From Enterobacteria phage P4, in the sequence record NC_001609.1: 11,624 bases of DNA; one strand, written 5' to 3'. The stretch's first letter is position 1, and the number at the start of each line of letters is the position of its first letter. This document shows, one piece after another, positions 2,541 through 9,030 of the stretch. The notes beneath the pieces are model-generated. The model was not told where the DNA came from and searched no databases. It saw only the letters and a program-made list of their open reading frames with translations. Both the position numbers and the translations under genes were made by a program.

Positions 2541-2606
2541 GTTAATCACACTCACTTCACGTTGATTTTTATTATAGCAACTAACAATTAAAAACTCCAG
2601 ATTATG

Positions 2607-3926
2607 TTACTTAACACTCATTTTAAAAATCAACCAATAACTATTTTTATTTAAGTATTTCTTTGTATTTTGAATAATCATAAGGCTAATATATTTATTA
2701 CGGTTCATATCCAAATAATCAGCCCACCACTGCATCATTAAACGCCGCTCATCCAAATGCTCGGAGGTATGGATATATGCCGCACGTACATTATTACGCT
2801 CTGAGTGGCTCAGTTGCCTCTCTATCGCGTCATCACTCCATAACCCCGACTCCCCCAACGCACCACGCGCCATAGTCCTAAACCCATGCCCACACACCTC
2901 GGTTTTAGTATCATAGCCCATCGCACGCAATGCGCTGTTTACCGTGTTTTCACTCATAACCTTAGTTGCGTCATGATCCCCCGGAAAAAGCAGCTCTTTA
3001 TCACCACTAATCTGCTTTAACTGGTTTAATAAAATCATCGCCTGTCGACTAAGCGGAACGATATGTTCCTCTTTCATCTTCATGCCTCGGTACGAATAAC
3101 GCACACCTTTAATTTCTTCTCGCTTTGCAGGTATACGCCAAAGAGATTTATCGAAGTCGAATTCATCCCAACGTGCGAAACGTAATTCACTGGAACGCAC
3201 AAAAGTTAGCAAGGAAAGCTTGACCGCAATCCGTGTCATTACACGGCCACGATATGCAGCAAGACGTGCAAGAAACTCAGGGAATCGGCTAGAAGGTAAA
3301 GCAGGGTAATGTCGCGCTTTGGTTGTCGATAGCGCACCAGCCATATCGCTGGCTGGATTTGAGTCGATGTAATCGTTCTGTACGGCATAACGCATAATGG
3401 CTGTGACGCGCTGTTGCAGGCGCTGAGCGACATCGTGTTTGCCACTGGCATCAACTTTTTTAATCGGGGCTAACAGGTGGCTGGTTTTAAGCTGCCGAAT
3501 GTCGGACGAACCGATATGAGGGAATATATAAAGCTCAAGATAGCGAAGAACGCGCGATCGATGGTCTTCACTCCAGCGCTTGTTACTGGCATGCCATTCT
3601 CGGGCGATAGCTTCAAAAGTATATGCCCCCGAATTCTCGGCCCGAGCTTCTTTTTGTACGACTTTTGGGTCTATGCCCTGTACTAAAAGCTTTTTAGCTT
3701 CATCGCGTTTTGCTCTTGCCTGAGCAAGCGTCACAGTAGGCCAAACACCAAACGCAAGACGATCCTCTTTTTTGTCAGAGGGACGTCTGTATTTCATGCG
3801 CCAGTATTTGGAACCTTTGGCCGAAACCTCAAGATACAAACCACCACCATCGGCCATTTTGTAGGTTTTGTCTTTTGGCTTTGCGGTCTCGACCTGTCTG
3901 GCGTTGAGCTTCATTTGGGGGCACAT
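2607..3926 (-). CDS. int: P4-type tyrosine integrase (site-specific recombinase, phage integrase family)
   Basis: 439-aa ORF. N-terminus MKLNARQVETAKPKDKTYKMADGGGLYLEV is the typical P4-integrase arm-binding region; catalytic signature HGFRT...RAAYIHT near the C-terminus. First ATG at 3926, second at 3914. The C-terminal tail runs into AT-rich sequence. Confidence 0.9.
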   Translation of the reverse strand: MCPQMKLNARQVETAKPKDKTYKMADGGGLYLEVSAKGSKYWRMKYRRPSDKKEDRLAFGVWPTVTLAQARAKRDEAKKLLVQGIDPKVVQKEARAENSGAYTFEAIAREWHASNKRWSEDHRSRVLRYLELYIFPHIGSSDIRQLKTSHLLAPIKKVDASGKHDVAQRLQQRVTAIMRYAVQNDYIDSNPASDMAGALSTTKARHYPALPSSRFPEFLARLAAYRGRVMTRIAVKLSLLTFVRSSELRFARWDEFDFDKSLWRIPAKREEIKGVRYSYRGMKMKEEHIVPLSRQAMILLNQLKQISGDKELLFPGDHDATKVMSENTVNSALRAMGYDTKTEVCGHGFRTMARGALGESGLWSDDAIERQLSHSERNNVRAAYIHTSEHLDERRLMMQWWADYLDMNRNKYISLMIIQNTKKYLNKNSYWLIFKMSVK

Positions 3927-3965
3927 TTCTAATCGAAGTTAAGATGCCCCCAATTATGCCCCCAA
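3916..3965. repeat. Cluster of three (A/G)TGCCCCC(A) repeats, candidate integrase arm-type binding sites
   Basis: GTGCCCCCAA inverted at 3916-3925 (overlapping the int start codon), ATGCCCCCAA at 3944-3953 and 3956-3965. Two more copies lie at 4154-4173 on the other side of the att core. Confidence 0.5.
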
Positions 3966-4077
3966 TGATATCCGGATTTCAACGGACAACCTCGGAAGAC
4001 GCAGGACGAAAAAATCGCTGCAAGCATTGATTTTAAAGGGATATTTGGACTTTCTCGGATGGTCTTGGAAGTAAGAA

Positions 4078-4101
4078 TGGTGCCGAAGGCCGGACTCAAA
4101 C
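4078..4101 (-). other. attP core region with homology to the 3' end of a tRNA (leuX-type tRNA-Leu)
   Basis: TGGTGCCGAAGGCCGGACTCAAAC is the reverse complement of a tRNA T-arm/acceptor 3' end (...GTTTGAGTCCGGCCTTCGGCACCA). Only the 3' segment is present, as expected for a phage att core that regenerates the tRNA 3' end on integration. Confidence 0.55.
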
Positions 4102-4153
4102 ATCAAAATAAGTTAATGATAAAAAACAAATAATAAAACACAACAATGAAATA

Positions 4154-4173
4154 TGCCCCCTTTTGTGCCCCCA
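4154..4173. repeat. Two further (A/G)TGCCCCC repeats on the far side of the att core
   Basis: ATGCCCCC at 4154-4161 and GTGCCCCCA at 4166-4173, the same motif as the 3916-3965 cluster, bracketing the tRNA-like core. Confidence 0.5.
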
Positions 4174-4290
4174 CTGTTTTTCTGACCAATCTATTTTCAG
4201 CCCATCAATAAATCGGAAAGTTAAATCATTTTTAATCAGTAAGTTTGGATCCGTAGCTCGGATCCAAACCAGTGCATCTTTTATCCACAT

Positions 4291-4590
4291 AAAAAATTTT
4301 TTTTCGAAAGAACTGTTCACACTGTTCACCTTTCTGTTTTCTCCTTTTATTTCAGAGTGATAGGTGGTGAATAATGGGTGAAGGGTGAACATTCGATTCT
4401 TCACCTCCGGCATTCTGCCGATGTGACTCATACCGGTGATTAATCCTCCGCACTGAAATCACTCAGGAAGAAAAAAGTTTTTTTTGATTTGATTGTTCAC
4501 ACTGTTCACCTTTCGTTTTTCTCTTTTAATTTCAGTGTGATAACGGGTGAATATACGGTGAAGGGTGAACAGTGGATTGTTCACCTTCGG
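4291..4590. repeat. crr (cis replication region): two 120-bp direct repeats carrying alpha-binding type I iterons
   Basis: Copies at 4291-4410 and 4471-4590 are near-identical, with an exact 180-bp period (ACTGTTCACC at 4321 and 4501) and a 60-bp unrelated spacer. Each copy holds several TGTTCACC / GGTGAAYA octamers in both orientations. Confidence 0.75.
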
Positions 4591-8763: not shown

Positions 8764-9030
8764 TCATGCGTCGTACCCCCGTTTGCGTCCGGCAATGCGT
8801 CCGGCCATCCATGCGGTGACTTCAGAGTGCAGCCAGGCCACATTTTTACCGCCAAGACTCACCTGCGGCGGAAATTCCCCCTTACGGATGAGTTCGTAGA
8901 TGGTCGAGCGTGACAGGCCGCACAGGTGCATCACTTCCGGCACACGTAAAAAACGCTCCTGCGTGATGTCCGGCAGCGGCATCAGTGGCGTCACTGGGGC
9001 GGGAGACGGGGAAGAAAAAACAGCTTGCAT
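8764..9030 (-). CDS. vis: Vis, AlpA/Xis-like helix-turn-helix regulator and excision factor (orf88)
   Basis: 88-aa ORF with ATG at 9030 and GAGG SD 7 nt upstream. Contains the AlpA-family HTH ...[30 protein letters not shown].... First gene downstream of the late leftward promoter. Confidence 0.8.

Follow-up and report, generated by a model that had tools for sequence, protein, structure and literature searches.

Putative integrase arm-type repeats flanking the tRNA-Leu-derived attP core of satellite phage P4

The window analyzed here, that is, the whole stretch of 11,624 nucleotides, was identified by megablast against phage records as the complete 11,624-bp genome of the satellite phage P4. 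All 11,624 bp are tiled by the P4 records M27748, X05947, X05623, and X02534 at 99.5–100% identity. The region of interest contains the gene of the phage tyrosine integrase, int, with its promoter Pint, a short core that matches the end of a tRNA gene, and five copies of the octamer RTGCCCCC, three on the int side of the core and two on its far side; the excisionase gene vis lies elsewhere in the genome (Table 1). An ORF that overlaps the far-side arm (4096–4431, minus strand) has no Pfam match and was left out of the att system.

Table 1 Features of the P4 attP/int region and the vis gene, in window coordinates
Feature	Position	Strand	Basis and remarks
int, P4 tyrosine integrase gene	2607..3926	−	439 aa from ATG 3926; 435 aa from the conserved ATG 3914
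Putative int-side arm-type repeat, inverted, GTGCCCCC on the minus strand	3917..3924	−	int leader; motif match and conservation
Putative int-side arm-type repeat, first of the direct pair, ATGCCCCC	3944..3951	+	near the predicted +1 of Pint; invariant in relatives
Putative int-side arm-type repeat, second of the direct pair, ATGCCCCC	3956..3963	+	overlaps the Pint −10 hexamer
Pint, sigma-70-type promoter	3953..3982	−	−35 TTGAAA 3982–3977; −10 CATAAT 3958–3953; annotated in X05947
attP core, 20 nt	4078..4097	−	20/20 match to the leuX 3' end; X05947 core annotation; prophage junctions
AT-rich far-side spacer, 16% G+C	4098..4152		presumed bend bringing arm sites to the core
Putative far-side arm-type repeat, first of the direct pair, ATGCCCCC	4153..4160	+	55 nt from the core
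Putative far-side arm-type repeat, second of the direct pair, GTGCCCCC	4165..4172	+	12 bp from the first
vis, trans-acting excisionase / recombination directionality factor	8764..9030	−	Pfam Phage_AlpA, E = 1.7e-20

Positions 3400–4252 (853 nt) are 100% identical to X05947.1, "Bacteriophage P4 attP region and P4int gene", and the identity to X05947 over the full 2557–4252 is 99.5%. The annotation of X05947 was carried to window coordinates by adding 2558 to the locus position. This places int at 2604–3926 (minus strand), the −10 and −35 elements of an E. coli-type promoter at 3953–3958 and 3977–3983 (minus strand), and the "20 bp core seq. within attP" at 4078–4097. Both marks of the published P4 attP are present, namely, identity to X05947 and a 20-bp core that attB also contains, as the 3' end of an E. 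coli tRNA-Leu gene. The locus is the same sequence as the published P4 attP/int region (X05947; Pierson & Kahn, J Mol Biol 1987), with no substantive difference here, and the P4 attP/Pint region is already characterized, its biology having been settled between 1987 and 2006; it is not new. The deposited annotation of X05947 does not include the repeats as features and gives Int as 440 aa, compared with 439 aa here.

Three domains were detected in Int with Pfam: an N-terminal arm-binding domain (Arm-DNA-bind_3, PF13356, aa 7–93, E = 3e-26), a core-binding domain (Phage_int_M, aa 104–198), and a catalytic domain (Phage_integrase, aa 227–388), the combination that marks a heterobivalent integrase. 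In 13 of the 23 aligned relatives, an extra A shifts the upstream start codon, ATG 3926–3924, out of the int reading frame, whereas ATG 3914 is always in frame; the latter is thus the conserved int start, and PGAP places the start of the gene in E. coli prophages at the equivalent position. A consensus scan of 3850–4300 returned Pint as the sole promoter-like match (TTGAAA-18-CATAAT, 10/12 consensus positions), and a scan of the same interval found no terminator. The −35 region, CCGTTGMAATCC, is kept in relatives.

Read on the minus strand, 4078–4097 is GAGTCCGGCCTTCGGCACCA, which is the final 20 nt of leuX, the tRNA-Leu (CAA) gene of E. coli K-12 (NC_000913, 4496405–4496489), whose 3' end reads ...GGTTCGAGTCCGGCCTTCGGCACCA. 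The match runs from the last four bases of the T loop through the 3' strands of the T stem and the acceptor stem to the discriminator and CCA, and it coincides with the 20 nt annotated as the core in X05947. The preliminary description of this DNA had delimited a somewhat longer segment, 24 nt (4078–4101), as a mimic of a tRNA 3' end and had proposed its alignment with the E. coli tRNA-Leu genes. In that alignment leuX is indeed the matching gene, at 23 of 24 positions, with a single mismatch at 4098 (T in P4, C in the tRNA); the segment is the reverse complement of a tRNA 3' end, but the exact match extends over only 20 nt. No complete tRNA was found by ARAGORN in the window, and the tRNA-like segment is therefore a fragment only. 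The leucyl-tRNA locus is given as the target of P4 by Pierson & Kahn 1987, as cited in a passage of PMC7286903.

The five octamers lie exactly where the preliminary description had placed them, three on the int side, one of these inverted, and two on the far side. RTGCCCCC occurs six times in the whole window, compared with 0.92 copies expected, and five of the copies fall within 257 bp. Six copies were not reached in any of 200 dinucleotide shuffles, nor were five copies within 260 bp in any of 2000 mononucleotide shuffles, where the largest cluster comprised three. Both direct pairs have a start-to-start spacing of 12 bp, and the int-side and far-side pairs lie 114 nt and 55 nt from the core, respectively. 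As in lambda-type sites, the repeats occur on both arms and are unlike the core. Pierson and Kahn reportedly noted the five flanking repeats already as candidate Int sites. The inverted copy had been described as overlapping the int start codon, which applies to the upstream ATG (3926–3924), with which it has 1 nt in common, but not to the conserved ATG (3914–3912), from which it is separated by 2 nt on the upstream side. The sixth copy, at 3623–3630 inside int, was considered as an extra site and rejected, as synonymous changes remove it in relatives that keep all the upstream sites; since it is not conserved at synonymous positions, chance or the coding sequence best accounts for it.

In close E. 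coli relatives, no position of the block 3895–3965 varies, so that conservation there is not specific to the repeats, and specificity emerges only in a wider comparison. The int-side arm was compared across loci encoding Int relatives at least 84% identical to P4 Int, from Citrobacter, Kluyvera, Serratia, Pantoea, Erwinia, Pectobacterium, Mangrovibacter, and other genera. In nearly all of these, the three int-side copies are located at about −49, −37, and −10 from the second ATG, the inverted copy being at −10/−11 in almost all relatives, and the 114-nt spacer to the core has diverged until barely alignable. In P4-family integrases with ~40–75% identity, the layout is kept, a direct pair spaced by 12 bp and then a single inverted copy immediately ahead of the ATG, and the word itself has changed at all three positions together (GGGGCA in Xenorhabdus, and elsewhere TGTTGGTA, TAGGGATACG, GAGGTATC, or GGGGGCY). 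In an exact-word test, this layout was present in 67 of 95 distinct upstream regions for k = 6, compared with 13 of 2850 dinucleotide shuffles, and in 42 of 95 for k = 7, compared with 0 of 2850. Across the integrase family, a conserved (G)GTTCGAT box was also observed between the direct pair and the inverted copy.

For the far-side arm, attR matches in E. coli are uninformative because nearly all of them are at least 95% identical to P4. Conservation was therefore judged on diverged IMG/VR elements, with attR located by blastn. Two diverged elements, L242 (alpha 85% identical) and L325 (alpha region ~71%, Vis 72%), have retained the far-side sequence GGGGGCAC-AAAA-GGGGGCAT without any change, together with its distance of exactly 55 nt to the core. 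P4-like elements whose Vis (87/88 aa) and alpha are near-identical can be divided into at least four classes of far-side module, in which the similarity to P4 ends near 4291. Each class has its own direct pair with 12-bp spacing (GGTATACG, TGTATAA-like, GTGTATAG), and the tRNA-like 3' end, which differs between classes, lies at a similar distance from the pair. Among the 12 informative contigs in which a P4-type Int is encoded as well, 11 have the GGGGGCAY pair; in the exception, L273/L007, a P4-type Int is accompanied by another far-side module, and this contig looks like a hybrid element or an assembly chimera. The preservation of motif, layout, and spacing across genera, together with the association of the motif with the int/att module rather than with Vis, supports the RTGCCCCC repeats as integrase arm-type sites, that is, candidate Int contacts, in agreement with the preliminary description.

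It is very unlikely, by comparison, that the repeats are binding sites of Vis, the cognate excisionase and an AlpA-family recombination directionality factor (RDF), and not of Int. Vis binds attP in EMSA and footprinting experiments and is needed for excision according to text in PMC2603039, and passages of PMC2603039 and PMC2951348 have it binding inside P4 attP and lowering Int. Moreover, both pairs are direct and their 12-bp spacing, about one helical turn, is the usual geometry of RDF sites as described in part of PMC7498355, but Piazzolla et al. proposed, as related in a passage of PMC2951348, that Vis acts on int by binding mRNA. The distribution of the motif fits Vis sites poorly. The sites are on both arms and one is inverted, as for arm-type Int sites, and the motif accompanies a P4-type Int in 11/12 contigs, as described above. 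Vis regulates the P4 late promoters as well, so the restriction of the motif to the att region, with no further genomic copies except the one non-conserved coding copy, counts against Vis sites. Finally, elements whose Vis is identical at 87/88 aa nevertheless have four far-side motifs with different tRNA-like cores. As the motif varies together with the att/int module at constant Vis, the reading as Vis sites is rejected.

Even less probable is the possibility that the repeats are elements of the int promoter and leader that recur on the far side by chance and have no role in recombination. The int-side pair does form the −10 hexamer, and the entire leader block is invariant within E. coli. 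However, the far-side pair is located ~200 bp from the promoter, beyond the core, and comes to lie ~11 kb away after integration, yet its sequence and its exact 55-nt spacing from the core are kept in diverged elements. The five-copy cluster (0/2000 shuffles) and the simultaneous change of all three int-side words in distant relatives also speak against this possibility; such joint change is expected of sites matched to one protein, not of a promoter.

Natural integration junctions bear directly on the function of the core. The int-side arm is fused to an annotated tRNA-Leu gene, with the similarity to P4 ending at 4101, in 720 of 5426 complete E. coli genomes, and a far-side arm beginning at 4078 was found in 254 E. 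coli genomes. In E. coli 504838, both junctions could be read for a prophage 99.5% identical to P4. One end consists of tRNA-Leu, the core, three repeats, and int, and the other of two repeats, a copy of the core, and then the leuX terminator. These junctions are the exact product expected of attP × attB exchange within the core. In the natural prophage L247, the repeats are split 3 + 2 between attL and attR. As in other elements that restore their target tRNA gene, an intact tRNA is found on the int side and a displaced copy of the core on the far side. The proposal that the core restores the 3' end of a tRNA-Leu gene is thus borne out both by the 20/20 match to leuX and by the junctions in E. 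coli genomes. That the tRNA-like segment is instead a decayed remnant of a captured tRNA gene without recombination function, as its being a fragment with no complete tRNA predicted in the window might suggest, is extremely improbable, given the hundreds of genomes with prophage junctions exactly at this block that complete the tRNA gene and its annotation as the experimentally defined attP core.

The natural junctions also differ from laboratory P4 in one detail. All 14 distinct natural attR junctions that were read, as well as L325, have a 19-nt core (CTTCG-CACCA) that is one G short of the tRNA and of laboratory P4, whatever sequence follows the junction. The attL junctions within the tRNA-Leu gene keep the intact sequence, so that the tRNA stays whole. 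A 19-nt core at attR with an intact sequence at attL implies that the deletion moves with the element, on the far-side arm, and strand exchange would accordingly lie on the int side of the missing G, within the terminal GCACCA. Judging from these sequences, the 19-nt natural core would leave only the final ~6 nt of the tRNA gene (GCACCA) for strand exchange, and a perfect 20-nt core would make laboratory P4 atypical among natural P4-type elements. Exchange in the terminal GCACCA would agree with the "asymmetric 3' end" class of integration sites in tRNA genes. At three attR sites, CTTCGCAC is present in 2–4 tandem copies.

Taken together, we consider it highly probable that the feature is the P4 attP, a site built in the style of lambda and used by a heterobivalent tyrosine integrase. 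In the proposed mechanism, strand exchange with attB would take place in the 20-bp core. The N-terminal arm-binding domain of Int would hold the RTGCCCCC repeats and its central and catalytic domains the core, one Int molecule bridging an arm site and the core across the AT-rich spacers, which are presumably bent by IHF. The far-side spacer is conserved in length and has diverged in sequence. It contains an IHF-consensus-like site with one mismatch (4109–4121, minus strand), although such matches are no more frequent in the genome than expected by chance; a high-affinity IHF site is placed in the P4 int regulatory region by a passage of PMC7286903. Integration would generate an attL composed of the intact tRNA gene, the three int-side sites, and int, and an attR with the two far-side sites, ~11 kb away. 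Excision would additionally require Vis.

The arrangement of the int-side arm points to a second role of the repeats. The −10 hexamer of Pint (3953–3958) overlaps the repeat at 3956–3963 and abuts that at 3944–3951, so that CATAAT straddles the junction of the two direct copies, and the transcription start would lie near 3946. Since the hexamer is formed by this junction, Int bound there would occlude RNA polymerase, and the same Int-DNA contacts at the arm sites would repress int transcription. An int promoter located inside an att arm and overlapped by repeats is what distinguishes autoregulated integrase genes (Panis et al. 2010), and passages of PMC2951348 argue that overlap between attL and the int promoter generally predicts autoregulation and that such autoregulation is widespread. 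In the account of Piazzolla 2006 given in part of PMC2951348, both Int and Vis negatively regulate P4 int, Int by direct DNA binding near the transcription start. The preliminary description had attributed autoregulation to the copy over the start codon. Negative autoregulation itself agrees with the published work as summarized in a portion of PMC2951348, but the principal operator is most plausibly the direct pair at 3944–3963, positioned on the −10/+1 region of Pint, rather than the inverted copy. The latter, as far as its conservation indicates, is a conserved third site beside the start.

Comparison with known systems places P4 attP close to that of phage lambda. Both have a heterobivalent tyrosine integrase, repeats on both arms that are unlike the core, AT-rich bendable spacers, and a separate excisionase; in lambda, the arm-type sites are those of P and P', and there are also IHF, Xis, and Fis sites. 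In P4, unlike in lambda, a tRNA gene supplies the core with its 3' end, and int has a promoter of its own within the arm and is read in the direction leading away from the core, so that the arm sites would double as operators. P4 also differs from lambda in that its excisionase gene is unlinked (~4.8 kb away) and belongs to the AlpA family, and in that the arm-binding domain of Int represents a different Pfam family (PF13356).

A closer parallel is the IntS-TorI system of KplE1/HK620, for which P4 is named as a parallel case in a passage by its authors (Panis et al. 2010, PMC2951348). The two systems differ in integrase lineage, tRNA target (argW in KplE1/HK620), and repeat motif, and TorI acts on DNA whereas P4 Vis is proposed to act on int mRNA, as stated in part of the same article. 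P4-family integrases of islands and cryptic prophages, such as K-12 intB beside leuX and those of the strain 536 PAIs, share with P4 the same three domains, tRNA 3' ends as targets, and two direct copies plus one inverted copy of a lineage-specific repeat upstream of int. Unlike P4, they have other motifs, for instance, TACCAAC upstream of K-12 intB, and many of these integrases or elements are defective or have no matching far-side arm.

The analysis illustrates that a textbook attP can be recovered from raw sequence, with its tRNA-derived core, arm-type sites, and self-repression of int. Beyond this, there is some chance, which we rate only tentatively, that three regularities have not been stated previously: the operator/arm grammar, the 19-nt attR core, and the exchange of att/int cassettes. 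On the comparative evidence, P4-family int genes may follow a fixed grammar that consists of a pair of repeats 12 bp apart, the (G)GTTCGAT box, and an inverted copy abutting the start codon. The far-side pair may be held at exactly 55 nt from the core and its motif swapped along with the integrase, and the att/int module may be exchanged as a cassette with a breakpoint near 4291. The co-variation of the motif, the fixed spacings, and cassette exchange could aid the annotation of att sites in enterobacterial P4-like satellites and islands, and the same comparative rules could help predict integrase specificity in these elements.

At all natural P4-type attR junctions read, in which the far-side arm is joined to the displaced copy of the core, the core is the 19-nt sequence GAGTCCGGCCTTCG-CACCA, irrespective of the host sequence beyond it (compared loci L167, L168, L176, L177, L180, L186, L189, L192, L197, L203, L205, L220, L229 and L242). 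The same 19-nt core was read at L325, at position 1011 of L247 (L247:1011; the natural prophage of E. coli 504838), and at L006 and L096. It is one G shorter than both the 3' end of leuX and the core of laboratory P4 (4078-4097), which makes the perfect 20-nt core of the laboratory phage atypical of natural elements. L006 and L096, where the junctions have no 5' part of a tRNA and carry the same one-G deletion, are probably tandem or secondary insertions. At attL junctions within the tRNA-Leu gene, the intact core sequence is retained, so it is the far-side arm of the element that carries the deletion along. On the evidence of these junction sequences, a deletion carried on that arm would place strand exchange within the terminal ~6 nt of the core, GCACCA.

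The attR cores of L180, L189 and L203 contain an 8-nt unit, CTTCGCAC, in two to four tandem copies (for example, CCTTCGCACCTTCGCACCTTCGCACCA); slippage and aberrant recombination are both possible origins of these copies.

In strain MIN11 (L006), a ATACCAACAC pair with 12-bp spacing adjoins the 19-nt core, which is fused to a P4-type int side, an arrangement that suggests tandem insertion into the attR of a resident element. Upstream of int in Citrobacter murliniae (L087), the int-side arm is fused to a sequence that is not tRNA-like and has only CGGCCTTCGGCACCA in common with the core; possible readings are a secondary attachment site and a rearranged junction. The E. coli K-12 gene intB, which encodes a cryptic P4-family integrase beside leuX, has its own upstream repeat, TACCAAC, in direct and inverted copies within the leuX-intB interval (L002:560-680).

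Coordinates of features in and around the P4 att/int region.
Feature	Position	Strand	Remarks
Two in-frame ATGs of int	3926 and 3914 (within 3912-3926)	-	
(G)GTTCGAT box	3933-3938		Minus strand TTCGAT; flanked by the direct pair and the inverted copy
111-aa ORF	4096-4431	-	Crosses the far-side arm and terminates within the core
Perfect 11-bp inverted repeat, GTTTGGATCCG/CGGATCCAAAC, 5-nt gap	4243-4269		Near the annotated crr repeats
Similarity breakpoint	~4291		Between crr and the far-side arm

The upstream ATG of int is out of frame in 13 of 23 relatives, which have an extra A, so the conserved int start is the ATG at 3914. The ATG at 3926 is conserved as sequence and probably belongs to the extended repeat AAATGTGCCCCC. 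The (G)GTTCGAT box is conserved in the int leaders of the P4 family, including those with a differing repeat motif (upstream regions of L087-L166). On the int mRNA its position would be about +8 to +13, and it might bear on the RNA binding reported for Vis, the AlpA-family excisionase.

In several genera (L095, L096, L103, L104 and L142), a hairpin with a T run after it (AAAGCCGAAAGGCTTTTTTTTT) is present in the int-side spacer, directly 3' of the restored tRNA end. The element appears to provide a terminator for the completed tRNA gene. The counterpart in P4 itself (~4013-4036) is only weak. On the far side, part of the 111-aa ORF is given as an 'unidentified reading frame' in X05947, the deposited P4 attP/int record, and the ORF has no Pfam match. 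The inverted repeat is located directly outside the att module.

In the set of P4-like elements whose Vis and alpha are near-identical (L248-L326), similarity to P4 ends at the breakpoint in 42 loci (41 at 4291 and one at 4292) and reaches the core in 17. Each alternative module has its own direct pair with 12-bp spacing (GGTATACG, TGTATAA-like or GTGTATAG) and, downstream of the pair, a different tRNA-like 3' end. One contig (L273/L007; IMGVR_UViG_2537561692_000012) encodes an Int 100% identical to that of P4 but ends, on the far side, in a different att module, with a GTGTATAG pair and a different core; either a recombinant, 'locked-in' element or chimeric assembly may account for it. The att/int module appears to undergo cassette-type exchange among P4-like elements.
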